From positions 47,571-111,570 of the forward strand of contig JAZKBV010000003.1 of assembly GCA_040388415.1 (NCBI GenBank): a stretch of DNA of 64,000 nt, in the 5' to 3' direction. Origin of the DNA: Patescibacteria group bacterium. GTDB lineage: Bacteria; Patescibacteriota; Minisyncoccia; Phycocordibacterales; PALSA-1337. Under the pieces are notes generated by a model. The model saw only the letters and a program-made list of their open reading frames with translations. It searched no databases and was not told the origin of the DNA. Position numbers and translations under genes: made by a program. This document shows positions 20,973 through 45,236 of this stretch, in pieces; the first letter of the stretch is position 1, and the number at the start of each line of letters is the position of its first letter.

Positions 20973-22157
20973 ATGACATCACGACGCATACTCATTTTCT
21001 CTTTTGCGTACTATCCGCGCTTCGTCGGCGGGGCAGAGGTTGCGATAAAAGAGATCACTGACCGTATCCCTCCTGAAACAATTGAGTTTGACCTTATCTG
21101 TCTCCGCCTCGATTCGCGCTTGCCAGCTTTCGAGCGTATCGGCAATGTGAACGTGCACCGTATCGGTTTCTCACAGCATAAAGAATTTTCGACAGATTCG
21201 TTGCCGTGGTACCTCCATATAAATAAATATTTGTATCTTTTTACGGGAGTGCGAAAAGCTCTCTCGCTTCACCGAAAAAGAAAGTACGATGCTATCTGGT
21301 CGCTCATGGCTACCTATAGCTCATTTGCAGCAGTTATATTCAAGATCCTCAAACCAAAGATTCCTTTCATCTTTACTCTGCAGGACGGCGACCCCATCCC
21401 ATATATCAAGCGTAAAGCCTTGCCGCTGTACCCATTATTTAAAATGATGTTTACCCGCGCTGATCATATACAAACTATTTCAACGTATCTTGCAGAGTGG
21501 GCAAAAGATATGGGCGCAAAGTGTCCTGTGACTGTGGTGCCAAATGCAGTCGACTTCGACTTATTCTCGACAAAAGAGTCTGTTGAACAACAAAGCGAGC
21601 TGAAAGAAAAACTCGGTAAAAAAGAAGGTGATGTCTTTATCATTACCACATCACGGCTTGTGGTAAAAAATGCAATCAACGATGTCATCGACGCGCTTTC
21701 ATATGTGCCTGAAAATGTGAAGTTTATTATCCTTGGTCAAGGGTACCAGGAGGCACAGCTCAAGGCACAGGTAGCTGAGCTTGAATTACAGGATCGCGTG
21801 AAGTTCCTTGGTTATGTTCCACACAAAGAGATGCCGAAGTATCTGCATATATCAGATATATTCATCCGTCCTTCGCTTTCAGAAGGGTTTGGTAATTCAT
21901 TCATTGAAGCCATGGCTGCAGAGATACCTGTCATAGCTACACCTGTTGGTGGTATCACCGATTTTCTCATTGAAGGAGAAACGGGACTATTCTGCGACGT
22001 ACATAGTCCGCGCAGTATCGCTCAGAAGGTAGAAAAATTGATCAGGGACAAAGAGTCGAAGGATTACATTGTCGCTCGCGCAAAAAAGATGGTCCAGGAA
22101 AAATATGAATGGAATATCATTGTCGAACGCATGCAAGACATTTTCCTCAGTATGTAA
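20973..22157 (+). CDS. Glycosyltransferase family 4
   Basis: EGFGNSFIEAMAAEIPVIAT, GT-B fold. Confidence 0.85.
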   Translation: MTSRRILIFSFAYYPRFVGGAEVAIKEITDRIPPETIEFDLICLRLDSRLPAFERIGNVNVHRIGFSQHKEFSTDSLPWYLHINKYLYLFTGVRKALSLHRKRKYDAIWSLMATYSSFAAVIFKILKPKIPFIFTLQDGDPIPYIKRKALPLYPLFKMMFTRADHIQTISTYLAEWAKDMGAKCPVTVVPNAVDFDLFSTKESVEQQSELKEKLGKKEGDVFIITTSRLVVKNAINDVIDALSYVPENVKFIILGQGYQEAQLKAQVAELELQDRVKFLGYVPHKEMPKYLHISDIFIRPSLSEGFGNSFIEAMAAEIPVIATPVGGITDFLIEGETGLFCDVHSPRSIAQKVEKLIRDKESKDYIVARAKKMVQEKYEWNIIVERMQDIFLSM

Positions 22158-22164
22158 AGTGAAT

Positions 22165-22176
22165 CCGTAGTATAAT
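22165..22176 (+). promoter_or_regulatory. -10 element TAGTATAAT upstream of 22184
   Basis: Consensus TATAAT 8 nt before ATG region. Confidence 0.35.
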
Positions 22177-22183
22177 TACTCTT

Positions 22184-23221
22184 ATGAAAATCCTTATTGC
22201 TTCTGGCATATATCCCCCTGACATTGGCGGTCCTGCGCAGTACGCGCGCAACCTCTATGAGACATGGAAAGGCCGAGATCACGATGTTAAAGTCGCTGCC
22301 TATCGTTGGGAGCGTGCGTTTCCTCCGCTCGTCAGGCATTTTTTGTACTTCCTCAAGATCATTCGTAAAGGCTGGAAGGCTGACCTTATACTCGTGCTCG
22401 ATACATGGTCAGCGGCAGTGCCGACGATGCTCGCATGTTCGCTTATGGGAAAAAAATACATTCTCCGCACGGGAGGAGACTTTTTGTGGGAGACATATGT
22501 TGAGAGAACGGGAGATCTTGTTTTGTTCAAAGACTTTTATGGAAAAGATAATGCAGCCGGCTCAGAATTCGTGGCAAAGCTATCAACGAAGGAAAAGCTC
22601 GTCTTTAAGCTCGGTGGGGCTTCGCTTCGTCGCGCGCATAAGGTCATATTCAGCACCCCATGGCAAAAACAGATTTTTGAAAAAGCATACAATCTCGATT
22701 CAAAGAAAGATATCATCGTTGAAAATTATTGTGGGGAACGCATGGATGCAGTTGAACCAGATAACAGAACTTTTTTAGCAAGCACGCGCATTTTGAAGTG
22801 GAAGAATATCGATTTGCTTAAAGAGGCGTTCGCAGAGGCCCAGGCCGAGGTTAAGCGCCGTGGTCTGCCAGATATTGATATGGATACGAGCAAGGCCATG
22901 TACTCGAACTTCGTCGAGCGCATGCATCGTTCATATGCGGTCATCCTTGCTTCTCTTGGTGACATCAGCCCGAACATGATTTTTGATGCAGTGATGACTC
23001 GTACGCCGTTTATCGTCACAAAAGAGATCGGTATCACAGAGAGGATTACAGACGCCGCTATTTTCATCGATCCAAAAAATAAGCAAGACATCGTAAATAA
23101 GATCGTCTGGATGGCAGATCCGGCGAATCGTGCAGTACAAGCAAAGAAAGTCCAAGCGCTGCCATTTATGCATTCGTGGGACGATATAGCTCGTGAGATC
23201 TTGGAGATAGGGAAGAAGTAA
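22184..23221 (+). CDS. Glycosyltransferase, GT4-like (divergent)
   Basis: N-terminal GIYPPDIGGPAQYARNL typical GT4 N-domain. Confidence 0.5.
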   Translation: MKILIASGIYPPDIGGPAQYARNLYETWKGRDHDVKVAAYRWERAFPPLVRHFLYFLKIIRKGWKADLILVLDTWSAAVPTMLACSLMGKKYILRTGGDFLWETYVERTGDLVLFKDFYGKDNAAGSEFVAKLSTKEKLVFKLGGASLRRAHKVIFSTPWQKQIFEKAYNLDSKKDIIVENYCGERMDAVEPDNRTFLASTRILKWKNIDLLKEAFAEAQAEVKRRGLPDIDMDTSKAMYSNFVERMHRSYAVILASLGDISPNMIFDAVMTRTPFIVTKEIGITERITDAAIFIDPKNKQDIVNKIVWMADPANRAVQAKKVQALPFMHSWDDIAREILEIGKK

Positions 23222-23230
23222 AAACATAAT

Positions 23231-24244
23231 ATGAAGAGATTATTGATGGTATCGACAGATCGAAAGATATTTGAGGCGGGGAGCGCTGTTCGCGCGCGTC
23301 AGATTGAATACGCAAAAAACTTTGAAGAAGTGCATATCATTGTTTTTGCAAAAGGTCAGCATGAGACGCACAATGAAATTGTGATCGGACCGAACTGCTG
23401 GGCGTATTCGACGCAGTCGTTGTCACGCTGGCTGTACACTTTTGACGCCTTACGCCTCGCCAAATTTATCGTTTCAAAAAGAAATATTACAGATGTCACT
23501 TGTCAGGATCCTTTTCAAACCGCATCAGTCGGCGTCTCGCTCAAAAAACAGTTTCCACAGGTACAGTTAGAACTGCAGGTACATACTGATATTGGTTCTC
23601 CGCATTTTACCTATACGTGGGGCAATAAGATTAGAAAGACAATGGCGCTATCGTATCTCGTAAAAGCTGACTACATCCGCGTCGTTTCAAATAAAATTAA
23701 AAATTATTTGATTGAGACATTGAAAATTGAGGACTCAAAGATTGAGGTGCGACCTGTGCCCGTTGATGTGGAAAAAATTAAACATGCGCCGATTATTTCT
23801 GGTGCAGATCTGCATAAAAAATATCCTCAGTTTGAAAAGATTGTTTTGATGGCATCACGCATTGAAAAAGAAAAGAATATTGTGCTCGCTATTGAAGCAT
23901 TTAAAAAAGTGGTTGAGAAGGTTCCAAAAGTAGGTCTGATTATTGTGGGCGAAGGTTCTCTTAGCTCCTACCTCCTAGCTCTTACCTCAAAACTTGGTCT
24001 AAGCGATTCCGTCATCTTTGAATCATGGGCAGATCAACATACGCTTTATTCTTACTATAAAACCGCTGACATCTTTCTTGTTACCTCGCTATTTGAAGGG
24101 TACGGCATGACTCTCATTGAGGCGAACGCTGCTGGTTGTAAGATCGTCTCGACTGATGTCGGTGTCGCCCGAGAAATCAGCGCGACCGTCGTTCTAGACA
24201 CCCCACAAAGCGTTTCAGAGGGAATCATTGGAATTATCAGTTAA
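23231..24244 (+). CDS. Glycosyltransferase family 4
   Basis: EGYGMTLIEANAAGCKIVST. Confidence 0.8.
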   Translation: MKRLLMVSTDRKIFEAGSAVRARQIEYAKNFEEVHIIVFAKGQHETHNEIVIGPNCWAYSTQSLSRWLYTFDALRLAKFIVSKRNITDVTCQDPFQTASVGVSLKKQFPQVQLELQVHTDIGSPHFTYTWGNKIRKTMALSYLVKADYIRVVSNKIKNYLIETLKIEDSKIEVRPVPVDVEKIKHAPIISGADLHKKYPQFEKIVLMASRIEKEKNIVLAIEAFKKVVEKVPKVGLIIVGEGSLSSYLLALTSKLGLSDSVIFESWADQHTLYSYYKTADIFLVTSLFEGYGMTLIEANAAGCKIVSTDVGVAREISATVVLDTPQSVSEGIIGIIS

Positions 24245-24267
24245 AAAGCGATATACTGGGCTTTATT

Positions 24268-25146
24268 ATGGCTGACATGACCAAACCCCTCATCGGATTT
24301 ATCGGACAAGGCTGGATCGGTAAGAACTACTCGAATGACCTCGAAGCGCGCGGGTATACCGTCGTGCGTTATGGTCTGGAAGATGAATATAAGGGCAATA
24401 AAGCAAAGATCAAAGGGTGCGATGTTGTATTTATCGCTGTACCGACGCCTACAACTAAGAAGGGTTTTGACGATAGCTATGTGCGTTCAGTTCTGCCTCT
24501 CATCGGCAAGGGCAAGATCGCTATTATCAAATCGACACTGATCGTCGGGTGCACCGAGCGGTTGCAGAAGTCATTTAAAAATATTATCGTCACCCACTCG
24601 CCAGAATTCTTGAGCGAAAAGACTGCAGCATATGATGCAGCTCATCCTGATCGCAATATAGTGGGCATTCCGGTCAACAACAAAAAATATGTTGATGCTG
24701 CGAATCTTGTTATATCAGTATTGCCACCAGCGCCGTTTTCGTTGGTCTGTAGTTCATCTGAAGCTGAGCTCATTAAATACAGCCACAATGTACACGGCTA
24801 CATCCAAGTGGTCTTTGCCAATATCCTTTACGATCTTGCCCAAGAATTTTCGATGGATTGGGAAGTGCTTTTCAAGGCGTTCTCAGCTAACCCTCTCATG
24901 GTTCCACGATATCTTCGTCCAGTTCATCAGAGCGGTCGTGGCGCGGGCGGAAACTGCTTTGTGAAAGATTTTGAGGCCTTCATACGTCTCTTTGAGAACA
25001 AGGTGAATGATAAGACGGGTATTGCTGCGCTCAAAGCGATACGTGAAAAAAATATCCAACTCCTCGTCTCTTCTGGAAAAGATTTGGAAAAGATTAAAGA
25101 AATGTATGGTCAGGGTGTAATCAAAAAACATCAAAAAAATAAATGA
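24268..25146 (+). CDS. Nucleotide-sugar (UDP-glucose/GDP-mannose) dehydrogenase-like protein lacking C-terminal domain
   Basis: IGFIGQGWIG Rossmann, FIAVPTP, catalytic-Cys-like GGNCFVKD; only 292 aa. Confidence 0.5.
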   Translation: MADMTKPLIGFIGQGWIGKNYSNDLEARGYTVVRYGLEDEYKGNKAKIKGCDVVFIAVPTPTTKKGFDDSYVRSVLPLIGKGKIAIIKSTLIVGCTERLQKSFKNIIVTHSPEFLSEKTAAYDAAHPDRNIVGIPVNNKKYVDAANLVISVLPPAPFSLVCSSSEAELIKYSHNVHGYIQVVFANILYDLAQEFSMDWEVLFKAFSANPLMVPRYLRPVHQSGRGAGGNCFVKDFEAFIRLFENKVNDKTGIAALKAIREKNIQLLVSSGKDLEKIKEMYGQGVIKKHQKNK

Positions 25147-26225
25147 AGCTCCTCATCCTTACTCAAAAAGTAGATAAGCTTGATCCGATTCTCGGTTTCT
25201 TTCATCGTTGGATAGAGGAGTTTGCTGCGCAAGCAGAAAAGGTGACAGTTATAACACTTAATGAAGGTGTCCATCAATTACCAGCGAATGTGACTGTTTT
25301 GTCGCTCGGTAAGAGCAAGGAACAGAAGGTTGGTTTTAAGGATAGAGCGCGATTCGTCTTTAGATTTTATGGTTATATTTGGAGCCAGAGGAAAAATTAT
25401 GATACGGTTTTTGTACATATGAACCCGATATACGTCGTCTTTGGTGGATTATTCTGGAAAATATTTGGCAAGAAAATATCGATGTGGTACACACACCGCG
25501 CCGTGGATCTGAAATTGCGCGTCGCTGAAGTATTTGCCGATGTTATTTTCACCGCCGCAAAAGAAAGTTTCAAATTGCCAAGTAACAAAGTGGTCGTTAC
25601 AGGTCATGGTATCGACGTTTCTCAGTTTCTCAGCATGCAGCGTTCGAAAGCGATCGGCACTGAGCCTATCCGCCTGTTGCATGTTGGGCGTGTCACGCAG
25701 ATCAAAAACTGCGATACGTTGATTGAAGCAGCAAAAATCCTTGCTGAGAAGTGGGACAAGAAGTTTGAGGTGGTCTTTGCGGGCAGTCCTATCACCGACG
25801 CTGACAGATCCTATATGGCATCACTATCTTCGCTTATTTCGACGTATAAGCTCGATGACATCATTCATTTCATCGGCCACGTCGCACCATCTGATATCAG
25901 CAAGCAATATGCTGCCTGCGATGCAACGGTCAATCTCACGCCCACAGGTGGTATCGACAAAGCTGTGCTCGAATCAATGGCTTCAGGAGTAGCGGTATTT
26001 TCTTCAAACCAAGCGTTTGTGAATTATTTTGATCGATATGCAGGTAGACTCATTTTCAAAGAGCGCGACCCAGCCGATTTGGCACATAAAATAATGGATC
26101 TATTTTCAACTGGTCCAGAAAAAGCTGGTGCAGATCTGCAAAAGATAGCCGAAGAGAAGGCGGATGTTGGTGTGCTTATACATACTATCTCTGATAAACT
26201 GACTTTGTTATGGAAAAACAAGTAA
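25143..26225 (+). CDS. Glycosyltransferase (GT-B, GT4-like)
   Basis: LTPTGGIDKAVLESMASGVAVFSS C-terminal donor-binding motif. Confidence 0.6.
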   Translation: MKLLILTQKVDKLDPILGFFHRWIEEFAAQAEKVTVITLNEGVHQLPANVTVLSLGKSKEQKVGFKDRARFVFRFYGYIWSQRKNYDTVFVHMNPIYVVFGGLFWKIFGKKISMWYTHRAVDLKLRVAEVFADVIFTAAKESFKLPSNKVVVTGHGIDVSQFLSMQRSKAIGTEPIRLLHVGRVTQIKNCDTLIEAAKILAEKWDKKFEVVFAGSPITDADRSYMASLSSLISTYKLDDIIHFIGHVAPSDISKQYAACDATVNLTPTGGIDKAVLESMASGVAVFSSNQAFVNYFDRYAGRLIFKERDPADLAHKIMDLFSTGPEKAGADLQKIAEEKADVGVLIHTISDKLTLLWKNK

Positions 26226-26830
26226 ACAAGGATCATTATAATTTCAAAGTATATTCTCATCTCGGCAGATGGGTGAGCTATTTCTTTCAACTTGAGCAAG
26301 TCTTTTCTTTTAGCCCAACATCTATCCTTGAGATCGGTGTCGGCGACCGTGTCTTTGGGGATTATATAAAAAATAATACTAGTATAAAGTATCTCTCAGC
26401 CGATGTAGCCGAAGATCTCAAGCCTGATGTAGTTGCAAGTGTGACAGCATTGCCTTTCACTGACGGAGAGTTCGATGTCTCATGTGCTTTTGAAGTACTT
26501 GAGCATATTCCATTTGATTCATTTGGAGTGGCGTTGCGAGAGATGTCTCGTGTGTCAAAAAAAGCAGTTATTATCAGCCTTCCGCACTTCGGCCCCTCAT
26601 GTGAGCTTTCATTCAAGATTCCTTTTATCAAAAGAGTAAAGCTTGCCTTCAAGCTTCCATTCCATCCGATTCATGTCTGGAATGGTGAGCATTATTTCGA
26701 AATAGGAAAAAAAGGGTATGAGATTAGCGAGATACGTAAAGTACTACGAAAAGATTTTGTCATCCAAAAAGATTTTGTGCCATTTGAAAACCAGTATCAC
26801 CATTTCTTTGTTCTTGTTCCAAAAAAGTAA
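26210..26830 (+). CDS. Class I SAM-dependent methyltransferase
   Basis: ILEIGVGDRVFG motif I, FEVLEHIP post-II. Confidence 0.6.
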   Translation: MEKQVNKDHYNFKVYSHLGRWVSYFFQLEQVFSFSPTSILEIGVGDRVFGDYIKNNTSIKYLSADVAEDLKPDVVASVTALPFTDGEFDVSCAFEVLEHIPFDSFGVALREMSRVSKKAVIISLPHFGPSCELSFKIPFIKRVKLAFKLPFHPIHVWNGEHYFEIGKKGYEISEIRKVLRKDFVIQKDFVPFENQYHHFFVLVPKK

Positions 26831-26841
26831 TCGTTACGCGT

Positions 26842-27873
26842 ATGAAAATAGCTTTCATTCCACCAAAGAAGAGAAGTGAGTACCTGACCAATACCGTGTT
26901 GGACGGTCTTTTGTGGTTGAAGCGCGATGGGAATGGTCCTACCTCTGACATTGAGCTTGCGTTGCCGCCTGAAGAATACCTTTGTCCGTACGATATTTCA
27001 CCATATGTTTTAAGTCAGGCAGAATTTGATACGTTTGCCCAATCAGCTGATTTGATCATTCTTACGTTTGGAAAAAACACTACCAACTATGAGCTCGCAG
27101 AAAAAATAGGTCGTTGGGACAAAACTGTTTTTATCGATGGTGGGGAACTTGGTAAAGATAGGCGTTATGATGCTGGTATCCGCGCTCAAGTTGAAACAAT
27201 GACTTATGACGGCTTTGGTCGCATATACACTGATATGCTTAACAAATGTGCGCTCTACTTCCGACGTGAAAAACCCTATATCAAAGGCATCATTCCACTA
27301 CCGTTCGGCATTGAGTCGCGTTATTTGGCTCAATATGATCCGACTAAAAAAAGAGACATAGATTTTTGCTGTATTTTCGGTCAGGATGAATACCCGATCC
27401 TGCGCAGGAAAGTGACAAAACTGCTTGAGAAATTTTGCAAGAAAAATGGTTTTACCTGCCAGACAAAGAAGACTAAAGGATTTACTTTTGAAGATGATCA
27501 GAAGGTGGCGGGCAGAGATCCGTTCTACGAGATTCTCTCGCGTTCAAAAGTGGGCATATCGATCGGTGGTGGCGGCTTCGATACAGCACGCTTTTGGGAG
27601 ATATTGGGCAATGATTGCATGCTCATAACGGAGACTATCGATATATATGAAAAAGAAAATACCTTACTGGATTATAAGAGGATCATTCAGTTCAAGGATC
27701 TGGCTGAATTCGAAGCAAGATTACTTGAAGTCGCTGATTTTATCAAAAATAGCTATAATCAAACCGATAGATCAAGAGAGTACGCAGAAATCATCGATAC
27801 GCATTCAAGCAAGGCTCGAGCACTGACTGTTCTCACCGAGGCAGCGAAAAAGGGCATTATTTCTTTTAATTAA
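26842..27873 (+). CDS. Hypothetical protein in glycan locus (possible non-canonical glycosyltransferase)
   Basis: 343 aa, no clear motif. Confidence 0.35.
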   Translation: MKIAFIPPKKRSEYLTNTVLDGLLWLKRDGNGPTSDIELALPPEEYLCPYDISPYVLSQAEFDTFAQSADLIILTFGKNTTNYELAEKIGRWDKTVFIDGGELGKDRRYDAGIRAQVETMTYDGFGRIYTDMLNKCALYFRREKPYIKGIIPLPFGIESRYLAQYDPTKKRDIDFCCIFGQDEYPILRRKVTKLLEKFCKKNGFTCQTKKTKGFTFEDDQKVAGRDPFYEILSRSKVGISIGGGGFDTARFWEILGNDCMLITETIDIYEKENTLLDYKRIIQFKDLAEFEARLLEVADFIKNSYNQTDRSREYAEIIDTHSSKARALTVLTEAAKKGIISFN

Positions 27874-27879
27874 AACAAT

Positions 27880-28665
27880 ATGACGACATCTCAGTATGAT
27901 TGCGCGATAGTTATCCCTTCATGTGACTCATATGAAGAAGCGTGGGGCCCCTTTTTCGGTTTCTTTTTCAAATACTGGCCCGATTGTCCATTTCCTATTT
28001 ATCTCATCACCGAAACAAAAAAATTCGACGATCCTCGAGTGCAGATGATTAATCTTGGTAAAGACTTTGGTTGGGCGAACAATATGATCAAATCACTCGC
28101 TATCATTCCCGAAAATAATTTTATCTATTTTCTCGAGGATGTCTTTATCATGAAGAAAGTAGATACGGCTCGTGTACTCTCGCTTCTCAATCTTCTCAAA
28201 AAAGATACTATCTCATGTTTGCGCCTCTTTCCATTACCTGGACCTAGTACACAGTACGGTGACACAAAAGACCTCGGACTCATCGCTCAAAACGCCGAAT
28301 ATCGCGTCTCGACCATGCCAGCGATCTGGAATAAAGCTGCATTCAGTAGATTGCTCGTCGCGGGTGAGAATGCATGGCAAATGGAGCTCGATGGCACCAA
28401 GCGCGCTCATGCTATGAATGAATTGTTCGTAAGCGTCTGGCCGGGCGATGCGGTCATAGATATATTTGCTACTGCTATCAAGCGCGGACGCTGGCTCTAC
28501 GATGCGGTTCAGCTGTGTCACAAAGAGGGCATACCAGTAAAGCCGGTGAGACCAGTAGAAAGTTTCAATGAATATGTCATACGCAAAGCATGTTATCTTC
28601 CTGTCATCGGTGGATTCTTCAGGGTAGGGCATCGCTGGTATCACGCTCGGGGTAAAAAGAAGTAG
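27880..28665 (+). CDS. Hypothetical protein in glycan locus
   Basis: 261 aa, no clear motif. Confidence 0.35.
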   Translation: MTTSQYDCAIVIPSCDSYEEAWGPFFGFFFKYWPDCPFPIYLITETKKFDDPRVQMINLGKDFGWANNMIKSLAIIPENNFIYFLEDVFIMKKVDTARVLSLLNLLKKDTISCLRLFPLPGPSTQYGDTKDLGLIAQNAEYRVSTMPAIWNKAAFSRLLVAGENAWQMELDGTKRAHAMNELFVSVWPGDAVIDIFATAIKRGRWLYDAVQLCHKEGIPVKPVRPVESFNEYVIRKACYLPVIGGFFRVGHRWYHARGKKK

Positions 28666-28670
28666 ATAAG

Positions 28671-28709: not shown

Positions 28710-28714
28710 GTGAA

Positions 28715-30670: not shown

Positions 30671-30673
30671 ACT

Positions 30674-31834: not shown

Positions 31835-31835
31835 T

Positions 31836-32783: not shown

Positions 32784-32808
32784 TCCAAATCATGATAGTA
32801 TAGCCTCT

Positions 32809-37122: not shown

Positions 37123-39168
37123 TTATTTAAAAAATGCTTTGTATTTTTCTTTGTTCTCAAGAAGATATTGTGGCAGATCTGATTCATCTACCCATAGTTT
37201 TACATTTTTGCCACGGTGGTCGATATTTTTTGTGATTGCATCTTCAAGCTCGGCTATGTATTTTTTGTTTCCATAAAATGGATGGTCTGCTTCAGTAATC
37301 TTTCTTCGGGCACCGTCTATGCCCCCTTGAAAGTTGAAGTGCCAACCGCCGTTTCGAAGAACAGTGAATGCTGTTTTACCCTTTAAGCTGCGGATATCAT
37401 TGAGAGACCGAGCCTTTATGTTCTTGTATTTTGTCACAACCGTCCCGCTCCAACCCATCCAATCTTCATCTGATCGATTATTGAGATAATACATATAAGG
37501 CAATTGACGAGGCTTGAAGTAGCTATCCTGAGAATAATCAATAACAAGCTTCGGGTTCCATATTTCATCAAGGTCAGATAGGTAACATACATCAGCATCA
37601 TTCAACCCGACAAGCGCTTTCCTAATAGATTCTTTCATGTAGCATTCTTTGACCCAATATGGCTTTGAATGGTCAATTGTATCGTTTGAAATGCAATATT
37701 CAAGTGTTTCTCTGTCGATAGTTTGAGCTTCGCTGAGCTGAGACAATCTTTTTTTCATGTCAGTATCGTCTTGAGGTATATCGTCGATGACATGGTGGAT
37801 TATTTTGTGCGCCCATTTTTTGTAGCGGTTTTTGTTCTCTTCAAAATGCAGCTTTTTCTTATTTCCTGAAAATGTTTCTGCATACTCGACTATAACAAAA
37901 TAGTCGACATATGGGTCAAGGATATTCAGGCGTATCTCCAAGAGGTCGAGCTCATTGAAAAAGGGGAAGACATCGTATATCTTTATTTTTTTTCTGTATT
38001 CGGCGATTTGATTCTTTGCTAGCCATACCATTTTTCTAAGTCTAATTTCGTTTATTGCTTCGATTACCTGATTTGGATATTTGAGTATTTTCTTGACTAT
38101 ACGTTTGCTATTTTTTCTTGTTATAAAAGAAAACTTTTTGGCATTGCGAATAGTTCTTGTAATATTATCTTTTATCCAGATAGCGCTTCGAAGCCCTCGT
38201 GCACGGAAGAGCCAGATGAGCGCATATATCACCGTAACGTCATTTCTAATCGCTTTAAATATCTGCCAATTATTTTTTATCCGGTTCACAATAGTTTTTT
38301 TGAATTTGCCTGAATGAGCAGTATAAAGCGCTTCATTTCTTTTCATATAATCAGCAAGCTCAGAGGCGCACGAGTCATACCCACTTAGATCTCCTTTTCT
38401 ATCTAAATACATCCAGCTTTGCGTAAGGTTATATCCCAAGCTCCAATATCCATCTGAGATGTTGTGCCGCGCCCAATATTTAGGAGCTATGCAGAATTTG
38501 AGGTCTTCCGAAAGCCATGCAGGGAACCAGGCGAAGCTCGAATTTGAGAGTATGAGGTATTTTGCATTTTTGATCACCGCGTAATCTTTGCCGATATTCC
38601 AATGGTTGACCTCAAAATCAGGGAAGAATTTTTTTGCTGTCTTTACGTCATCGGTAACGACGACGAATCTGAAATTAGGGTTGATATTTCGCATATGGGC
38701 GATCGCATTATCCCAGTATCGTTGTGGCAAGAAAAAATCTACGTCGAACGCATATCCGCCGCCCCGAAAATTGATGATGCATATGCTCTCGTCTGAGTAA
38801 TCCCTGCAATCGAATTCAGGCCTGATTCGCAGCCACTCGCGAATCTCGTTTTTTCGATGGGCGATGTATTGTTCGTCCTGCATGTAGCCATCGATTTGCG
38901 TGCCGTTAGGCACGTTCACTAGATCGGCGTCATACGTGCGTATATCCGATCCGTTGAGAGAGTGAATGATCTCCTTTTCCTGATAATAGTTCGTCACGCT
39001 TTTAATTTCTTCACCCAAGTTGATCGGCATGAAATCATGACCTTTGAATAACTCTGGCGAAACTAAGCCGAAATCGCATCCGCGATCTTTTGCGATGACG
39101 CGGGCAGTCACATAGCACCAAAGCTGGTTGCCAAGTCCTTGTCCGTTGTAGAATTTAGTCGATATCAT
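37123..39168 (-). CDS. Fused two-domain glycosyltransferase: N-terminal GT11-like + C-terminal GT17-like
   Basis: N-term NGQGLGNQLWCYV (GT11 motif variant); C-term YDVFPFFNELDLLEIRLNIL...VDYFVIVE (GT17-like); start at 39168 gives ATGA overlap with upstream GT2 stop. Confidence 0.5.
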   Translation of the reverse strand: MISTKFYNGQGLGNQLWCYVTARVIAKDRGCDFGLVSPELFKGHDFMPINLGEEIKSVTNYYQEKEIIHSLNGSDIRTYDADLVNVPNGTQIDGYMQDEQYIAHRKNEIREWLRIRPEFDCRDYSDESICIINFRGGGYAFDVDFFLPQRYWDNAIAHMRNINPNFRFVVVTDDVKTAKKFFPDFEVNHWNIGKDYAVIKNAKYLILSNSSFAWFPAWLSEDLKFCIAPKYWARHNISDGYWSLGYNLTQSWMYLDRKGDLSGYDSCASELADYMKRNEALYTAHSGKFKKTIVNRIKNNWQIFKAIRNDVTVIYALIWLFRARGLRSAIWIKDNITRTIRNAKKFSFITRKNSKRIVKKILKYPNQVIEAINEIRLRKMVWLAKNQIAEYRKKIKIYDVFPFFNELDLLEIRLNILDPYVDYFVIVEYAETFSGNKKKLHFEENKNRYKKWAHKIIHHVIDDIPQDDTDMKKRLSQLSEAQTIDRETLEYCISNDTIDHSKPYWVKECYMKESIRKALVGLNDADVCYLSDLDEIWNPKLVIDYSQDSYFKPRQLPYMYYLNNRSDEDWMGWSGTVVTKYKNIKARSLNDIRSLKGKTAFTVLRNGGWHFNFQGGIDGARRKITEADHPFYGNKKYIAELEDAITKNIDHRGKNVKLWVDESDLPQYLLENKEKYKAFFK

Positions 39169-39950
39169 TTGGTGTAGCCTATAATGCTTACGATACAAGA
39201 CTTTATGAAACTTTTCATTCTTTTTGCTTTATATAGCAAGAGCAGGGCATGTTTGTGTCTTATCTTATGTTTTTTCAGCACATAGGCATACTCAGTCTCT
39301 CTCCGTTTCGTTGGGCTCGAATTGCCCATTTGGTTTTCGTGAACGCGTATAGCTATATCGACGCTGCCCAAGATTTTCGGGTTACCATAAAGGTTAAAAA
39401 GCGCGCGATAAAAATCAAGATCTTGCCACCAGATCAAGTTCGTATCAAATAAAGGGATGCTCGGGCTATTTTTTATAGTGACCACGGATGGCGCGCTCAC
39501 GGTATTTTTTTCTAGTATTTTTTCTCCATTAAAGCGAGGGTGGAACTCTCTAAAATAATTCGCTCCATCTTTTGTATGGATGCAGGCTGTTATAAGCCAT
39601 GCATCTTTTGCTAGGTCAAAATTATCGACGATATGTTGGAGCGACTCACTGTGATAAAGGTAGTCATCCAAGAAGAGTATTTTGATCAGTTTCCCGGTTG
39701 CGCGCTTTAGTGCATTATTCGTATTATCCGAAGGTGTTGCCCGAGGGTCTTCCTTGAAATAATGGATATCAAGCCTGTCGCCGTATTCGCGGCACACATC
39801 TTCGATCGCTGTATTTTTTGATTGATCAGAAACAACAATGTCAAAATCTTTGAATGTTTGGATGCACATCATATCGAAGCTGCGCTTTAGATACTGTGCA
39901 CCCTTACCACCCATTTCATATGCCGAGATGCAGATACTGATATGCTTCAT
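39165..39950 (-). CDS. Glycosyltransferase family 2 (GT-A)
   Basis: ISICISAYE...DIVVSDQS N-terminal GT2 pattern. Confidence 0.55.
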   Translation of the reverse strand: MKHISICISAYEMGGKGAQYLKRSFDMMCIQTFKDFDIVVSDQSKNTAIEDVCREYGDRLDIHYFKEDPRATPSDNTNNALKRATGKLIKILFLDDYLYHSESLQHIVDNFDLAKDAWLITACIHTKDGANYFREFHPRFNGEKILEKNTVSAPSVVTIKNSPSIPLFDTNLIWWQDLDFYRALFNLYGNPKILGSVDIAIRVHENQMGNSSPTKRRETEYAYVLKKHKIRHKHALLLLYKAKRMKSFIKSCIVSIIGYTK

Positions 39951-40008: not shown

Positions 40009-41628
40009 TTACATGAGAAGCTCGTTGATAATGGATCGTATTTTCTTATCTCTATCTTCTTGATCGCGCACGGTCTTCCAACCTGAAGCGCCGAAGATAT
40101 GCATCCAGTCGCCTATGTATTCTACCTCATCCAATGATAGGTCATTCACGGTCGTCGTGGGATTTTTTTGTTCCCGGATTTTTTTATGCGAATATGCAGG
40201 AAAAATGATCTTTTCTTGTTGAATCTTTGAATAGAACGAGTCCCAATTCATGCCACCAGTATCAACGGCAGTGCCATGTATCCTTCCATTGAGAAAATTC
40301 GCATGTATCCCGTCAAATGCTGATGCAGTATAAAAACAGAATCCAGCCCAGAGATACCACAACGAACCTCTCATCTGGAGATGGCCATATATGCGTTGCG
40401 AATCGAGGTGAGGAACGATGGATGTTTTTCTAATCGGAAAAATGTCATGGTCAAGAAAGCCGAAATAACGTGCGCCTCGCTTGCTCACATAATTTTTGTA
40501 AATCCAGTTGAGCGATGCGCCGTGGGAGGCCGAGCGTGTGAGAGGGTTTTTCGGAAGCTTCACATAAGCCACATTTTCGATTGCGCATAACTCTTTAATT
40601 TCCGCTGCTATTTTTATGTCAGGCGTGTTATCGAATACAGTATAAAAATAAGGATCAGTAAGGTTTTTTCGGAGCAGCTTGATCTGCCACTCGATGACTT
40701 CTTTATTGTTAAAAGCAACGGTGGCAAGGTCGATGACATATTTATTTTTGAGCGGAAGGATATCGCAGTTGATATGGTCGCATGCATTGAAGGGTATGCG
40801 ATAGAAGGCCTGTTCTCTGTATCTCAGGTATATCTTTTTAAAATGGAATCTAGCTTTGCTCATTACTATTCTCAAAATAAATAAGCACATATACCAAAAG
40901 TATACAGGCTGGATTATTTTGTATTTTTTAATCAAAAATGAAAGATATTTTTTTTGTACGTTCATGAGCTCGATGCCTCGCACCCGACTTTCGAAATATG
41001 TGCTTATCTGGTCCGCATGGATCCTTTTCTTGAGCAAGACCTCGGGTACATTTGCGATACATAATCCAGCGCTCATTGCTCGGACGTATAAGTCGTATTC
41101 ATTCTCGTAACGGTATTTTTCAGTATAGGCCAGACTCTTCCTCTCTAGATCGCTTTTACGGATAATGAGAGAAGATGATTCAACTTCATTTTTGAGAAGC
41201 ATTCCGCTGTGAACGTGCGTGACGAACTGAGGATATTTCCTAATCGCATTTCTTGATCCTATCTCTTGGATCTGACTTCCTGCAATGGCTATTTCTGGAT
41301 GAACATCCATGAAATGTACAAGTGTCTCAATTCTTGCAGGATAGCTGATATCATCGGCGTCCATTCTCACGATGTACTCGCCACGCGCCGAGCTTAATCC
41401 CTGGTTGAGCGCTTTAGTGATGCCGGTATTCTTTTCATTCTTTAAATAGGTGATCCGGCGGTCTTTGATCGACGCCACTATTTTTTCTGTCACGTCTAAT
41501 GATCCATCATTGATAATGATCAGTTCAAAATCAGGAAAAGTCTGGTACAGGATGCTGTCGATAGCATCTTTGATATATTTTTTGCCATTGAATACAGGTA
41601 GTATAACCGAAACTTTTGGATTACTCAT
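40009..41628 (-). CDS. Glycosyltransferase family 2 with additional ~300-aa C-terminal domain of unknown function
   Basis: VSVILPVFNGKKYIKDAIDSILYQTFPDFELIIINDGS...RMDADD; C-terminal half with FDNTPD / GFLDHD motifs. Confidence 0.75.
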   Translation of the reverse strand: MSNPKVSVILPVFNGKKYIKDAIDSILYQTFPDFELIIINDGSLDVTEKIVASIKDRRITYLKNEKNTGITKALNQGLSSARGEYIVRMDADDISYPARIETLVHFMDVHPEIAIAGSQIQEIGSRNAIRKYPQFVTHVHSGMLLKNEVESSSLIIRKSDLERKSLAYTEKYRYENEYDLYVRAMSAGLCIANVPEVLLKKRIHADQISTYFESRVRGIELMNVQKKYLSFLIKKYKIIQPVYFWYMCLFILRIVMSKARFHFKKIYLRYREQAFYRIPFNACDHINCDILPLKNKYVIDLATVAFNNKEVIEWQIKLLRKNLTDPYFYTVFDNTPDIKIAAEIKELCAIENVAYVKLPKNPLTRSASHGASLNWIYKNYVSKRGARYFGFLDHDIFPIRKTSIVPHLDSQRIYGHLQMRGSLWYLWAGFCFYTASAFDGIHANFLNGRIHGTAVDTGGMNWDSFYSKIQQEKIIFPAYSHKKIREQKNPTTTVNDLSLDEVEYIGDWMHIFGASGWKTVRDQEDRDKKIRSIINELLM

Positions 41629-41633: not shown

Positions 41634-43016
41634 TTAAATCGGATTAACTGGAGTAACTGTTGTAGCCTCAAGTGGTTTCTTTCGAATAAAAATGATGATT
41701 TGTAGTCCGAACAGAATAAAGTTCAAGAGTATTTGAGCCCAGAGCAATCCCCAGATGCCATAGAAGTAGAGCAATACTGAAAGCAATAGTATTCTCAGTG
41801 TTGGCATGACAAAGCTGACGATATAGAGCTCTTTCGTTTTGCGTTGAGCAATGAGAGCCATTTGCACGACCGTGGTGACGAGTGAGAAAAAAGATAGGGC
41901 ATAGATCTGCGTATAATGTATAGAATCGACATATGCAGGAAAGAACGTATGGAACGCCCATGGAGCGAACGCCGCATAGCTGCCTTCGCTTACGACGACA
42001 AGGACGACTATGACCCATAGCTTTTTCTTCAAGATATCTTTTACCTGTTCCTCTGATCGGTCTGATAATCTGAGAAGCACGAGGTTTGGAATGAATTTGA
42101 GGATGCCAGAGATCTTTTCTGGTATGATCGTGGCAAATGAATATATAGCGAGAGCGGTTGAGCCGATGAAATGGAAAACAAGCAGAGAGTCGAGCTGTCC
42201 CGCCAATGTTCCAAAGATATTCATTACAGACAGATGGATACCATAGGAAATGGTCTCATTATCTCTTTTTTCGTTTGGCGGAATATGTTTTATGACATAC
42301 AGATATAAGATGAAGTTGGTGAGAAATATGAAAAAGTAGTTTGCCGCCACGATCCAGAGAACATTTCTTGTAAAGTAAAGCGCAAGAAGGATCGGGACGT
42401 AGCTGATTATATTGTTGAAAAGTCCGTAGTATGTACCAATACGAAATAATTTTTTCCCGCCCAGATATGCGACCCACGTATTGAATGCGTTTCCAAGGGG
42501 GAGAAAAATAGCAATCAATATAAATGCTGTTCCGAGCGTATAGTTGCTGTGTATGAAGTACCATGACGATACGCTGAGTCCGAGAACGGCAGGGATGATA
42601 CCTGCCATGAGCTGGAAATGAACCGAATGCTTGAATTCTCCTTCAAATCCACGCGCCACTGCACGAGTGACAGCGCCGTTCATGTTATTGAGTGTTGTTG
42701 CGCCGATGAGCCCTGCAATAGCAAGTATGTATTGATACGTTCCGTAGGCATCTTTGCTCATGTATCGTGCAAACAAGAGCGATCCAGCAAAAGACATGAT
42801 CGTCACTATTGCCATGTTGAAATTGCTCCAAAATGTGCCGCTCGCCAAGTACACCATATCCGTCTTGGTGTACTGCTCTGACCAGCGAAGAAGTGAAATA
42901 AGTCTATTTTTCATGCGTTTGACTATGTTGGAAAGGTGATTGTGCAATACTAACATATCTTGCACCAGCTTGTTGAGTATTTGTCGTACATTAAGTATGA
43001 TGTATGAATTACCCAT
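41634..43016 (-). CDS. Wzx-like oligosaccharide flippase (MOP superfamily); alternative start at 42914
   Basis: ~12 TM helices, length and topology typical of polysaccharide flippases. Confidence 0.65.
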   Translation of the reverse strand: MGNSYIILNVRQILNKLVQDMLVLHNHLSNIVKRMKNRLISLLRWSEQYTKTDMVYLASGTFWSNFNMAIVTIMSFAGSLLFARYMSKDAYGTYQYILAIAGLIGATTLNNMNGAVTRAVARGFEGEFKHSVHFQLMAGIIPAVLGLSVSSWYFIHSNYTLGTAFILIAIFLPLGNAFNTWVAYLGGKKLFRIGTYYGLFNNIISYVPILLALYFTRNVLWIVAANYFFIFLTNFILYLYVIKHIPPNEKRDNETISYGIHLSVMNIFGTLAGQLDSLLVFHFIGSTALAIYSFATIIPEKISGILKFIPNLVLLRLSDRSEEQVKDILKKKLWVIVVLVVVSEGSYAAFAPWAFHTFFPAYVDSIHYTQIYALSFFSLVTTVVQMALIAQRKTKELYIVSFVMPTLRILLLSVLLYFYGIWGLLWAQILLNFILFGLQIIIFIRKKPLEATTVTPVNPI

Positions 43017-43028
43017 ATATAAATTAAT

Positions 43029-45236
43029 ATGCCACTCAAATCCCTTACTCGATTCCTTACGCTTGCACCGCTATTCCTTATACCGTTCTTTCCTTTGATC
43101 GTTGAGAATTCATTCTTCTTTCCATTCATTACCGGCAAAGCTTTCTATTTCCGTATTCTCGTTGAGATCGCTTTTGCTAGTTGGATTATCCTCGCATGTC
43201 TCGACGCAAAGTATCGTCCAAAGATAAACGCACTCACACTCGGCGTCACTGCATTCGCGCTCATCACGCTCGCCGCTGACCTTCTCGGCGTGAACCCGCT
43301 CCGCAGTCTCTGGTCAAACTTTGAGCGTATGGAAGGTTGGATCGTTATCGCGCATCTCTGGATGTTCTTCATGGTCATAACTCATGTATTTGGCGCAGGG
43401 GAGATAGGCAAGAAACTGTGGCGTCAATGGTTGAATGTTTCCCTCGTCGCGTCGCTCTTGGTTGCCTGCTATGGTTTCGCGCAGCTATTTGGTTGGGCTG
43501 AGATCCATCAAGGATCGGTTCGTATCGATGCGTCTCTCGGCAATGCAGCATACATGGCCGTGTATATGCTCATCAGCACTGGATTTGCCGTATTCCTCTT
43601 TTTGGAATCACGAGCGCGCCGCACAGTAAAAAACATCTTTGACCTCAGCGTATTCGAGTGGCTCTACGCTATCGGCGCTCTTGTCTTCGCTTTCTTGCTT
43701 TTTGAAACAGCGACTCGCGGTACTGCATTTGGCTTGATTGGTGGCGCCATGCTCGCCCTCTTCTTGTATGCTCTCCTCGCTGGTCCAACAAAGAAAGCTT
43801 CTCGCATGGTCGCTGGCGGCATCATCGTCGTCATCATGCTTATCGGCGGCGCACTATGGTCAGCGCGCGATACGTCTTTCGTAAAGAATAATCAAGCGCT
43901 CAACCGTCTCACATCCATCACTCTTTCTGAGATACAGACACAAGGCCGCGCCTATATCTGGCCTATGGCAGTAAAAGGATCGCTTGAGCGCCCTGTTCTC
44001 GGTTGGGGCCAGGAAAATTTCAATTATATCTTCAACGCCAACTATAACCCTGCCATGTATAACCAAGAGCAGTGGTTCGATCGCGCGCACAGCGTCTATC
44101 TCGACTGGTTGGTTGCATCTGGCTTCGTAGGTTTGTTGGCATATCTGGCATTATATGTATTCTTCTTGCTCGCTGTATGGAGATCGACTCTCACCATCGC
44201 CGAAAAGAGCGCATTGACTGGCCTTCTTGTTGGTTATGCGATCCACAACGTCTTTGTGTTCGATAACCTTGCGAGCTATGTATCATTTTTCGCCCTTCTC
44301 GGTCTCGGCGCTTCATTGAAGTCAGCAAAGGCACAAGATGTTCCAAAGCCAGTGCGCGAGATAAGTCCTGATATCATCGAATACGTCATTGCACCGCTCT
44401 CGATCATCATTCTTTTGGGCGGGCTCTATATGTTTAATGTTCGTCCGATCCAGGAAAATACTCGTCTGATCGATGCGCTTCGTGCATGTAGTGGTAGCAG
44501 CATGCCTGATGCCACGCTCTTCCAGCGCGCCCTAGATGCAGGGTCATATATGGGCATGCAGGAGATTCGTGAGCAGATATTCTCATGTACGCCAAATGTC
44601 ATTAACTCTCAACAGATACCTGGTCCCACAAAGCAGGCGTTCGGCGAGCTTGCAATGACTGCGATTACGGATCAGATCGCCGCTTCTCCAAAGGATGCTC
44701 GTATATATACTCTCGCTGGTTCATTCCTCGAGCAAGTCGGCTCATTCCAACAAGCTGTTCCATTCCTTGAAACAGCGCACAAGCTTTCTCCTGCAAAGCA
44801 GACCATCGCATTTGCGCTTTCAACGGCATACATCAATATCGGCAAATATGATCAGGCTATCGCATTGCTCAAGCAAGCATATGAATCGGCGACAGAAAAT
44901 GCGGATGCAAAGTCAGCCTATCTCACCGCGCTTATCATCGGAGGACAGGAGTCGCAAGCGAAAGCGCTTTTCGGCAGCATGCCTGAGCTCTTCAATAATG
45001 AACGCGTTGCGCAGGCATACGCATTGAATAAGCAGTACGATAAAGCCATTGCCATTTACAAAAATATCATCGGTACAAGCACTGATCAAGTCAGTACCCA
45101 GTTCAGACTTGCGGAAATACTCTTTAGCGCAGGACGATCATATGAATCAGTCGCGCTTCTGAAAGCGATCGAAACTGCTCATCCAGAGTACAAGGCTCAG
45201 CTCGAAGCTGCTATAAAGCAGATTCAATCAAAATAG
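43029..45236 (+). CDS. O-antigen ligase/polymerase-like (Wzy_C domain) membrane protein with C-terminal TPR repeats
   Basis: Multi-TM N-domain with RAHSVYLDWLVASGFVGLL (Wzy_C-like), periplasmic loop, ~250-aa C-terminal TPR-like region. Confidence 0.6.
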   Translation: MPLKSLTRFLTLAPLFLIPFFPLIVENSFFFPFITGKAFYFRILVEIAFASWIILACLDAKYRPKINALTLGVTAFALITLAADLLGVNPLRSLWSNFERMEGWIVIAHLWMFFMVITHVFGAGEIGKKLWRQWLNVSLVASLLVACYGFAQLFGWAEIHQGSVRIDASLGNAAYMAVYMLISTGFAVFLFLESRARRTVKNIFDLSVFEWLYAIGALVFAFLLFETATRGTAFGLIGGAMLALFLYALLAGPTKKASRMVAGGIIVVIMLIGGALWSARDTSFVKNNQALNRLTSITLSEIQTQGRAYIWPMAVKGSLERPVLGWGQENFNYIFNANYNPAMYNQEQWFDRAHSVYLDWLVASGFVGLLAYLALYVFFLLAVWRSTLTIAEKSALTGLLVGYAIHNVFVFDNLASYVSFFALLGLGASLKSAKAQDVPKPVREISPDIIEYVIAPLSIIILLGGLYMFNVRPIQENTRLIDALRACSGSSMPDATLFQRALDAGSYMGMQEIREQIFSCTPNVINSQQIPGPTKQAFGELAMTAITDQIAASPKDARIYTLAGSFLEQVGSFQQAVPFLETAHKLSPAKQTIAFALSTAYINIGKYDQAIALLKQAYESATENADAKSAYLTALIIGGQESQAKALFGSMPELFNNERVAQAYALNKQYDKAIAIYKNIIGTSTDQVSTQFRLAEILFSAGRSYESVALLKAIETAHPEYKAQLEAAIKQIQSK

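Follow-up and report, generated by a model that had tools for sequence, protein, structure and literature searches.

The question raised by this locus is to which acceptor a CPR bacterium would attach an oligosaccharide that is made, flipped and handed over by machinery of the O-antigen kind. CPR bacteria (Patescibacteria) have genomes of less than 1 Mb and depend on hosts, and their surface chemistry is almost unknown. They are monoderm, so that lipid A-core is probably not applicable as acceptor here; no LPS genes are present in the window, that is, in the whole stretch of 64,000 nucleotides that was analysed. The DNA belongs to a Patescibacteria MAG (Paceibacteria-type), in agreement with the CPR-like host suspected in an earlier note on this DNA; a protein identical to its glycan ligase is recorded from a Patescibacteria MAG. 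The contiguous locus of about 22 genes described there was borne out by the ORF map and Pfam scans, which reproduced nearly every item: the island at 20973-45236 (~24 kb) consists of 22 real genes, with about ten glycosyltransferase domains (GT4, GT2, GT11, GT17) and four methyltransferases. Our reading, to which we assign a probability of roughly 0.6, is that a variable surface-glycan island feeds a conserved, lineage-wide ligase, for which a conserved surface protein is the most probable acceptor. The features are as follows.

20973..22157, plus strand: g1, GT4 glycosyltransferase (PF00534, 145 bits; closest relative 90% identity)
22184..23221, plus strand: g2, GT4-like (PF00534/PF13439, ~23 bits, below the cut-off of 26-28; closest relative 91%)
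23231..24244, plus strand: g3, GT4 glycosyltransferase (PF00534, 101 bits)
24268..25146, plus strand: g4, short NDP-sugar dehydrogenase-like protein, N-terminal and central domains only (PF03721, PF00984)
25143..26225, plus strand: g5, GT4 glycosyltransferase (PF00534, 68 bits)
26210..26830, plus strand: g6, SAM methyltransferase (PF08241, 33 bits)
26842..27873, plus strand: g7, conserved, no family assignment (gene-like codon usage; closest relative 87% identity)
27880..28665, plus strand: g8, conserved, no family assignment (closest relative 91% identity)
28715..29536, minus strand: g9, hypothetical, possibly GT-A fold (codon score, homologs)
29630..30670, plus strand: g10, GDP-mannose 4,6-dehydratase, Gmd (TIGR01472)
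30674..31834, plus strand: g11, ColD-type GDP-4-keto-6-deoxymannose 3-dehydratase (ColD 2gms best in PDB)
31794..32783, plus strand, likely true start 31836: g12, Fcl/ColC-type epimerase-reductase (NF047922; relative's gene 312 aa)
32617..33489, plus strand, likely true start 32809: g13, SAM methyltransferase (PF13489, 53 bits; relative's gene 226 aa)
33486..34610, plus strand: g14, GT4 glycosyltransferase (PF00534, 71 bits)
34537..35316, plus strand, likely true start about 34603: g15, SAM methyltransferase (PF08242, 31 bits)
35326..36207, plus strand: g16, FkbM-type methyltransferase, also RfbT-like (PF05050, 66 bits)
36197..37111, minus strand: g17, GT11 alpha-1,2-fucosyl- or colitosyl-transferase-like (PF01531, 89 bits)
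37123..39198, minus strand: g18, two-domain transferase, GT17 C-terminus and marginal GT11-like N-terminus
39165..39950, minus strand: g19, GT2 glycosyltransferase (PF00535, 37 bits)
40009..41628, minus strand: g20, GT2 glycosyltransferase with an extra C-terminal domain of ~280 aa (PF00535)
41634..43016, minus strand: g21, Wzx (MOP-family) flippase (PF01943)
43029..45236, plus strand: g22, WaaL-fold glycan ligase, 735 aa, 13 membrane helices, C-terminal TPR (residues 472-735)
45327..45341, plus strand: terminator-like GC hairpin 3' of g22 (six G-C pairs, then a T-run; weak evidence)

Four of the five GT4 transferases claimed earlier (g1, g3, g5, g14) score above the cut-off, and g2 falls below it. 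Both GT2 proteins, g19 and g20, were recovered, g20 with 117 bits over residues 7-135 and one hydrophobic segment at 238-256; so were the GT17 domain (g18 residues 400-478; PF04724, 69 bits) and the four SAM methyltransferases (g6, g13, g15 and the FkbM-type g16), which may point to heavy O-methylation of the sugars. The division into a plus-strand and then a minus-strand block holds with the exception of g9, which lies on the minus strand inside the plus block. This ORF is taken as a real gene because it has a codon score of 0.23, whereas the plus-strand ORF that overlaps it has -0.03, and because 77 homologs were found, one of them carrying PF00535 and one named glycosyltransferase. For g7 there were no matches in Pfam, NCBIfam or PDB; for g8 there was none in Pfam and NCBIfam, and its sole PDB match was non-significant (E 0.79). 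The g4 protein scored 113 bits against TIGR03026, below the cut-off of 190, and its short form recurs, 93% conserved, in the closest relative. The mechanical ORF starts of g12, g13 and g15 had been placed too early. The G+C content of the two blocks (0.435 and 0.414) is only mildly lower than that of the flanks (0.45-0.47).

The dideoxyhexose pathway proposed before was recognised in g10-g12. The Gmd equivalog TIGR01472 is matched by g10 with 571.6 bits (cut-off 415). The top PDB match of g11 is ColD of E. coli O55 (2gms, E 2e-63), perosamine synthases reaching only about 1e-24, and its His186 falls on ColD His188, the catalytic residue that is mutated in 3b8x, with no Lys at this site; by homology g11 is assigned as a PMP-dependent 3-dehydratase with His in place of the Schiff-base Lys. 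The Fcl model NF047922 gave 471.6 bits for g12, just below the cut-off of 500; ColC and Fcl are homologous, and g12 may serve both sugars. The predicted gmd-colD-colC pathway would yield GDP-colitose, a 3,6-dideoxyhexose, and possibly fucose as well. Colitose is associated mainly with Gram-negative O-antigens, and here it is predicted in a monoderm CPR bacterium. Of the two GT11 domains claimed, g17 belongs to the alpha-1,2-fucosyltransferase family, with HIRRGD (HxRRxD) at residues 172-177, but the N-terminus of g18 does not, since it is marginal against PF01531 (23.6 bits, cut-off 23.9) and the HxRRxD motif is absent.

The Wzx and Wzy_C assignments were likewise upheld. The flippase g21 scores 39.1 bits against PF01943 (cut-off 28.2), has about 13 hydrophobic segments and is 65% identical to the Wzx of the related locus L005. 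In g22 a Wzy_C domain (PF04932, 68.9 bits, cut-off 31.7, residues 216-373) is joined to the C-terminal TPR module, as had been noticed before. At the sequence level the membrane domain matched nothing in the PDB; at the level of structure g22 has the polytopic fold of solved WaaL, which is its top match, and a large loop that follows helix 9 faces outward. This loop contains the His motif H[NSQ]x9Gxx[GTY] as H354-S-x9-G365-xx-G368. Across 43 sequences H354, R230, R293 and R307 do not vary, and R215 of E. coli WaaL is aligned with R230 in a weak alignment (hhalign, 11% probability). A topology with the N-terminus inside, 13 helices and the TPR domain outside is predicted because of the AlphaFold2 helices, the positive-inside count (14 vs 5) and the invariant C487/C520 pair.

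Pfam Wzy_C spans polymerases as well as ligases, the window contains a Wzx and g22 is its only Wzy candidate; g22 could therefore be a Wzy-type polymerase of Wzx-flipped repeat units, with an unrelated ligase elsewhere attaching a capsule or wall polysaccharide. Its neighbourhood in other genomes makes this improbable. The exporter upstream of the ligase is of the Wzx type in 31 and of the ABC type (Wzm/Wzt) in 30 of 67 related loci, and both together were found in none, whereas ABC exporters do not use Wzy. Furthermore, g1-g15 and g17 have counterparts of 73-97% identity in the closest relative, and the ligase has one of 79%, but Wzm/Wzt stand there in the slot of Wzx, g21 being absent; DNA similarity is back 60 bp before the ligase start codon, and g16 has no DNA match there, a GT2+FkbM fusion being present instead. 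This alternation, together with the swap in situ, argues that the ligase can work with either export route and that it is not a Wzy polymerase. The position downstream of Wzx and ABC export, used as a criterion for WaaL-type enzymes, is seen here as genomic association. Wzy polymerases diverge fast, but in this family identity stays at 36-83% over at least 585 species genomes; the WaaL His motif and the structural match speak against a polymerase too, as does the lack of a Wzz/PCP co-polymerase domain in the window. The flip-then-ligate scheme with unknown acceptor, put forward in the earlier note, is still the best reading, and it gains strength from the pairing of the ligase family with Wzx in some relatives and with Wzm/Wzt in others.

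The conservation of the ligase is extensive. There are more than 4000 homologs, of which the best 120 are 50-83% identical with 99-100% coverage, and 3020 representatives of 50%-identity clusters at E<=1e-30 are mostly of the same length (~730 aa). The ligase belongs to the conserved core of the lineage and is not specific to this locus; the glycan genes are a variable island beside it. The synteny that had been proposed as a check recurs in related genomes, with an exporter upstream of the ligase and murB downstream (in 42 of 61 loci), usually as ligase-murB-secA, and other cell-wall genes lie near it in the window. In some distant relatives the ligase has no island as neighbour and is flanked by secY-adk-map-ndk and murB (the housekeeping order there being secY-adk-map ... 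murB-secA-obg), so that adjacency to glycan genes is not obligatory. This would suit a housekeeping ligase fed by donors from elsewhere and beside an island only by chance, the product of the island being used independently, e.g. as a free exopolysaccharide. We consider such a coincidence very improbable: 56 of the 67 species-level loci have an exporter gene no more than 3.5 kb upstream of the ligase, as a rule in divergent orientation and separated by a median of 92 bp, and the replacement export cassette of the closest relative landed in the same slot. Additionally, a lipid-linked glycan flipped in a cell without outer membrane would presumably leave its carrier only with the help of a transferase.

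With the conserved ligase fed by the island as the preferred reading, the nature of the acceptor has to be weighed. No S-layer protein, pilin or other candidate acceptor was recognised in the 64-kb window. By analogy with WsfB, the TPR-bearing S-layer O-oligosaccharyltransferase, a surface protein is the most likely acceptor: where a TPR module is fused to a glycan-transferring enzyme, that enzyme is typically directed at proteins, WsfB and PglL having the motif at the C-terminus and WsaB a TPR protein next door (PMC2943079). The same pathway might end on a membrane glycolipid (lipoglycan, LTA-like anchor) or on a peptidoglycan-linked wall polymer or linkage unit, which we regard as less likely. 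The acceptor of WaaL, whose fold g22 shares, is a lipid; WpaA/WpaB, of the WaaL/Wzy clan, were proposed for assembly of the secondary cell wall polysaccharide of Bacillus anthracis (PMC6030368), which offers a precedent; and the high conservation of the acceptor-side part of the ligase throughout the lineage is in keeping with a universal envelope component. The neighbourhood of murB and other cell-wall genes can be counted in the same direction, but murB adjacency also occurs in the plain housekeeping order and may carry no functional meaning, and the terminator-like hairpin lies between g22 and murB, such hairpins being no more frequent in the g22 region than expected. The earlier note had named a teichoic-acid or capsule locus with an ABC transporter as what would contradict it; no TagF/TagB-type polymerase, TagGH, Wzm/Wzt or LCP ligase was found in any ORF of the window, which weighs against wall polymers too.

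For the surface-protein reading the following course of events can be proposed. The pathway would begin in the cytoplasm with the formation of GDP-L-colitose, and probably also of GDP-L-fucose, by Gmd, ColD and the Fcl/ColC-type reductase. The approximately ten glycosyltransferase domains would assemble one large oligosaccharide on a carrier, presumably polyprenyl-pyrophosphate, primed by an enzyme encoded beyond the window: the only PF00953 protein in the window is MraY, inside the mur cluster, and no priming phosphoglycosyltransferase was found there or in the Pfam-annotated neighbourhoods of relatives. The GT11 enzymes may attach deoxyhexose residues and the four methyltransferases may modify sugars, after which Wzx would flip the finished lipid-linked glycan to the outer side of the membrane. 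The 13-helix g22 would then hand it over en bloc to an extracytoplasmic acceptor selected by its outward TPR domain, most likely a conserved surface protein that would be O-glycosylated as by WsfB.

The donor genes vary like O-antigen loci while the terminal ligase is conserved in hundreds of species, which provides one conserved enzyme for the hunt for the acceptor and a marker locus for surface diversity. About 24 kb spent on one glycan is roughly 3% of a genome as large as those of complete relatives (0.75-0.88 Mb). Tentatively, the TPR-fused WaaL-fold ligase might define a surface glycosylation system not described before and shared by the whole lineage of Paceibacteria-type CPR, with a conserved acceptor and a hypervariable O-antigen-like island in which the exporter switches while most glycosyltransferases are kept; the coat would then be what chiefly varies on the surface of these ultra-small episymbionts. 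If this were true, the make-up of the coat would differ between species (colitose/fucose, nonulosonic acids or methylated sugars), and as the main variable surface it would help to determine how CPR cells recognise hosts and evade phages. The change from Wzx to ABC with most assembly genes kept is a natural experiment on the interchangeability of export routes for lipid-linked glycans.

Among known systems, the S-layer O-oligosaccharyltransferases with Wzy_C, WsaB of Geobacillus stearothermophilus and WsfB of Paenibacillus alvei, and their slg loci offer the comparison from monoderm hosts (PMC2943079). The g22 locus shares with them Wzy_C and TPR, a likeness based on the published descriptions; the island resembles the slg loci in the glycosyltransferase cluster making a lipid-linked glycan, in export of the Wzx or Wzm/Wzt type, in methylation and in a ligase gene transcribed on its own (PMC2943079), and the AsnB-like gene recurrent in related islands resembles wsfA of P. 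alvei. Unlike in the slg loci, an S-layer gene and a priming WsaP-like transferase are not in or near the locus, and the CPR ligase forms its own strongly conserved family at a fixed chromosomal position beside murB-secA. At the level of the Pfam domain g22 is similar also to PglL and PilO/TfpO, the general and the pilin-specific O-oligosaccharyltransferases (Neisseria, Pseudomonas). These transfer Und-PP-linked glycans en bloc and have a relaxed donor specificity, as fits a conserved enzyme beside a hypervariable donor island, although they act in the Gram-negative periplasm and there is no pilin or other acceptor gene nearby here.

With WaaL (7tpj/7tpg of Cupriavidus metallidurans; E. coli) g22 has in common Wzy_C and the loop between helices 9 and 10 with the His motif. 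WaaL works downstream of a Wzx or an ABC export route, and both routes are mirrored in the 67 loci of the g22 family. It differs from WaaL in sequence (15% identity) and in a predicted additional helix, the 13th, and TPR domain of 260 residues outside the cytoplasm, and in a CPR host the lipid A-core acceptor is not expected. The enterobacterial colitose O-antigen clusters (E. coli O55/O111 type) share Gmd, the His-for-Lys ColD, an Fcl-like reductase and the HxRRxD of GT11 with the island; like it they are hypervariable loci in a constant chromosomal position, and their priming enzyme is encoded apart, as wecA is in E. coli and as is proposed for the island. The island differs from the O55/O111 clusters in its monoderm CPR host, in the absence of Wzy and Wzz and in the adjoining ligase, and in the related CPR loci Wzx and ABC exporters alternate at the same site while most of the glycosyltransferase genes are kept.

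The surface-glycan island at 20973-45236 holds 22 densely packed genes (g1-g22 in order), in agreement with the earlier note, which had claimed about 22, and almost every item of its gene list was recovered by searches of Pfam, NCBIfam and the PDB. The principal features are:

7871-15730, peptidoglycan cluster: a MurD-like and a MurC-like protein, MraY, an NlpC/P60 protein and an ATP-grasp protein
16855-20952, type IV secretion-like genes that border the island upstream: one for a PrgI-like protein and one for a VirD4/TrwB-like ATPase, separated by a DUF4015 glycosyl-hydrolase-like gene
24268-25146, g4, 292 aa: UDP-glucose/GDP-mannose dehydrogenase-like, with the N-terminal and central domains only
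26842-28665, g7 and g8: gene-like codon usage, 87-91% conserved in the closest relative, GCA_028713005.1
28715-29536, minus strand, g9
43029-45236, plus strand, g22, the ligase: 735 residues, a Wzy_C domain (69 bits) followed by TPR repeats
46763-47557, 264-aa ORF between murB and secA, without a Pfam match

The fusion of a Wzy_C/WaaL-type ligase to TPR repeats had been claimed and is borne out by g22; likewise both GT2 proteins (g19 and g20), one GT17 domain (69 bits, C-terminal half of the two-domain g18), four methyltransferases, one of them FkbM/RfbT-like, and the Wzx flippase (g21, MOP family, 39 bits where the cut-off is 28, about 13 hydrophobic segments) were found. Two counts stood only in part: from the at least five GT4 transferases g1, g3, g5 and g14 score clearly in Pfam whereas g2 is sub-threshold, and from the two GT11 domains that of g17 is firm (89 bits, with the family motif HxRRxD as HIRRGD at 172-177) whereas the N-terminal half of g18 is marginal (23.6 bits, cut-off 23.9). 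The block 20973-36207, described as plus-strand, contains a single minus-strand gene, g9. Its codon score is 0.23 versus -0.03 for the overlapping plus-strand ORF 28781-29308, which was rejected as a gene; g9 is a real gene. It is annotated by NCBI as a hypothetical protein and has 77 homologs; the family is small, consisting of about 77 hypothetical proteins, and the few source names given are all of Patescibacteria type. Since one homolog carries PF00535, g9 may be an unrecognised GT-A enzyme. No significant match to g7, g8 or g9 was obtained in Pfam, NCBIfam or the PDB, and g7 and g8 may be undescribed glycan-modifying enzymes. The short form of g4 is kept in the closest relative (93%), therefore it is not a pseudogene. 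The mechanical ORFs of g12, g13 and g15 start 5' of the likely true start codons, and the G+C content of the island is slightly lower than that of the flanks.

The dideoxyhexose pathway of the earlier note was recognized in the trio g10-g11-g12 (Gmd, ColD-type and Fcl/ColC-like). g10 is a Gmd equivalog in NCBIfam (572 bits). The nearest solved structure to g11, a DegT-family protein, is E. coli O55 ColD (2e-63, PDB search), and His186 of g11 aligns with ColD His188, a catalytic residue that is altered in the H188N entry 3b8x; g11 is not an aminotransferase. The RfbT-like methyltransferase had raised the idea of a perosamine synthase, which was rejected for g11, as ColD is the best match and His186 replaces the Lys; perosamine synthases matched at only about 1e-24, some 40 orders of magnitude worse than ColD. 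The score of g12 falls just below the Fcl cut-off, which is what the Fcl homolog ColC would give. From a Gmd, a ColD-like and a near-Fcl protein it follows that the trio should encode GDP-L-colitose synthesis, and GDP-L-fucose may also be made through the Fcl-like g12. The GT11 enzymes of the island would be the natural users of both donors.

The ligase has more than 4000 homologs, the best 120 being 50-83% identical with 99-100% coverage, and a relative is present in at least 585 species-representative genomes. With a profile of its membrane domain 3020 cluster representatives were retrieved (E<=1e-30), most of them close to 730 residues in length. A protein identical to g22 is recorded for an NCBI MAG named 'Patescibacteria group bacterium', its relatives are found in MAGs of Paceibacterota, Parcubacteria, Taylorbacteria, Nomurabacteria and Campbellbacteria, and the flank genes of the window (PrgI- and VirD4-like type IV secretion, DUF5671, Mur ligases, MraY, MurB, SecA) fit a Patescibacteria origin. 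In the 80 loci mapped by local phmmer and clustering the usual order is variable glycan genes, exporter, ligase, murB, secA and obg, with murB after the ligase in 42 of 61. Among the 67 loci with sufficient upstream sequence the exporter is of Wzx type in 31 and Wzm/Wzt in 30, never both; exporter and ligase are mostly transcribed divergently, and the gap between them has a median of 92 bp. The 10 kb upstream of these loci yielded 590 ORFs in 196 clusters with 135 singletons, including FkbM and other methyltransferases, GT2, GT4, Gmd/Fcl, GT11/GT17, AsnB-like, YfhO-like and radical-SAM genes. The extent of donor-sugar variation among the islands is seen in locus L038, where a nonulosonic-acid pathway (3710-6762; NeuC-like epimerase, NeuB, CMP-transferase) is present without colitose or fucose genes. 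In some distant relatives the ligase stands between secY-adk-map-ndk and murB without any island. The wide conservation, the fixed neighbours and the variable upstream genes thus indicate that the ligase is not locus-specific; it behaves as a core gene with a hypervariable island beside it.

Several further features of these loci were recorded. In the 10 kb upstream of loci L005-L084, GT4 genes occur in 18 of 33 Wzx-type versus 3 of 31 ABC-type islands (Fisher p 1.5e-4), and YfhO-like GT-C proteins in 6/33 versus 0/31. The apparent tandem ligase copies of L021 and L036 were rejected as paralogs, being split genes. The secA of L004/L006 (OY969557.1, about 13766-16426 in locus coordinates) consists of several ORFs and encloses a minus-strand ORF of 210 aa, as could result from an insertion, from an intein-like element or from frameshifts in the assembly. 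L077 (JBEBJM010000018.1), an 8.9-kb contig labelled Nitrospira sp., carries a typical Paceibacteria-type Wzx-ligase locus and is probably mis-binned. A VirD4-like gene lies upstream of the island in L011, and one borders it in GCA_028713005.1 too (81% identical).

The ligase of GCA_028713005.1 is 79% identical to g22, and the VirD4-like border gene, g1-g15 and g17 are collinear with 73-97% protein identity; the DNA is about 80.7% identical over 12 kb without large indels, and the flanks are similar. The g16 slot holds a GT2+FkbM fusion instead, and g18-g20 are far more divergent (45-62%). Wzx has no counterpart; its slot is filled by Wzm and a Wzt with a Wzt_C domain, and DNA similarity returns 60 bp 5' of the ligase start codon. 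In the next relative, L005 (ligase 75%), Wzx is 65% identical to g21. The comparison with GCA_028713005.1 displays a Wzx-to-Wzm/Wzt swap directly. The corresponding slot of GCA_028713005.1 holds a 268-aa ORF to which the 264-aa ORF shows no detectable similarity, although the genes on either side are 80-92% identical; the 264-aa ORF is evolving very fast.

In O-antigen pathways the ligase works with either export route, whereas the Wzy polymerase depends on Wzx. Here the Wzy_C protein is constant and its partner is Wzx in some loci, an ABC exporter in others, which argues for ligase behaviour; judged by conserved sequence, position and partner slot, g22 would act like a ligase. The proposal that a lipid-linked glycan is flipped by Wzx and then ligated is supported, the same ligase being paired with Wzx or Wzm/Wzt in relatives. 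The contrary possibility of a teichoic-acid or capsule locus with an ABC transporter gained nothing from the 64-kb window, where no ABC transporter, teichoic-acid polymerase or LCP ligase was found. As the window offers no second Wzy candidate and, in domain searches of its ORFs, no Wzz-type protein, this genome most likely makes one large oligosaccharide, which would be finished in the cytoplasm before flipping and en bloc transfer. A priming phosphoglycosyltransferase was found neither in the window nor in the relatives' annotated neighbourhoods examined. The only PF00953 protein of the window (12517-13644) was rejected as a WecA-type enzyme: it scores 183.6 bits as MraY versus 36 as WecA and lies among Mur ligases. 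Its MraY score is slightly below the TIGR00445 cut-off of 192. Many E. coli O-antigen clusters also lack a priming enzyme and rely on wecA elsewhere.

An AlphaFold2 model of g22 was built from a 43-sequence alignment (pLDDT 83). The outward loop 279-355 contains the invariant GWGQENFNY and EQWFDRAH354, and H354-S-x9-G365-xx-G368 matches the published WaaL motif H[NSQ]x9Gxx[GTY]. R230, R293 and R307 are invariant; E. coli WaaL R215 falls on R230 in a weak hhalign alignment (11% probability). From the helix boundaries and the Lys and Arg counts of the loops (14 inner, 5 outer), g22 is predicted to be an N-in protein with 13 helices. WaaL is described with 12, and the additional helix would place residues 472-735 outside, beside the catalytic loop; the invariant C487 and C520 of this segment fit such a placement. 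Conservation peaks in the outward loop (70%) and remains at 62% where the C-terminal domain lies nearest the membrane, which points to a conserved acceptor. With the full model Foldseek returned TPR proteins only; the membrane domain modelled alone was poor (pLDDT 64), and its sequence and profile searches against the PDB gave no match.

No acceptor candidate was recognised in the 64-kb window. Given the predicted outward TPR domain and the monoderm setting, the nearest described analogues are probably the S-layer O-oligosaccharyltransferases. Wzy_C is present in WsaB and WsfB, a C-terminal TPR motif occurs in WsfB and PglL, and a TPR protein adjoins WsaB (PMC2943079). wsfB is transcribed separately, on its own transcript (PMC2943079), and here a GC-rich hairpin lies 3' of g22. 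A lipid or wall polymer is also a candidate acceptor, with a precedent in WpaA and WpaB of the WaaL/Wzy clan, for which a role in Bacillus anthracis wall polysaccharide assembly was proposed (PMC6030368). The literature searched contained no account of this ligase family, or of the locus, from CPR bacteria. The system is of a kind already known, a glycoconjugate pathway with Wzx or ABC export ending in a WaaL-family ligase; its distinctive features are the lineage-wide ligase with a predicted outward-facing TPR domain, the O-antigen-like hypervariable island anchored to it, the export cassette exchanged in situ between close relatives, and the predicted colitose pathway in a CPR bacterium.
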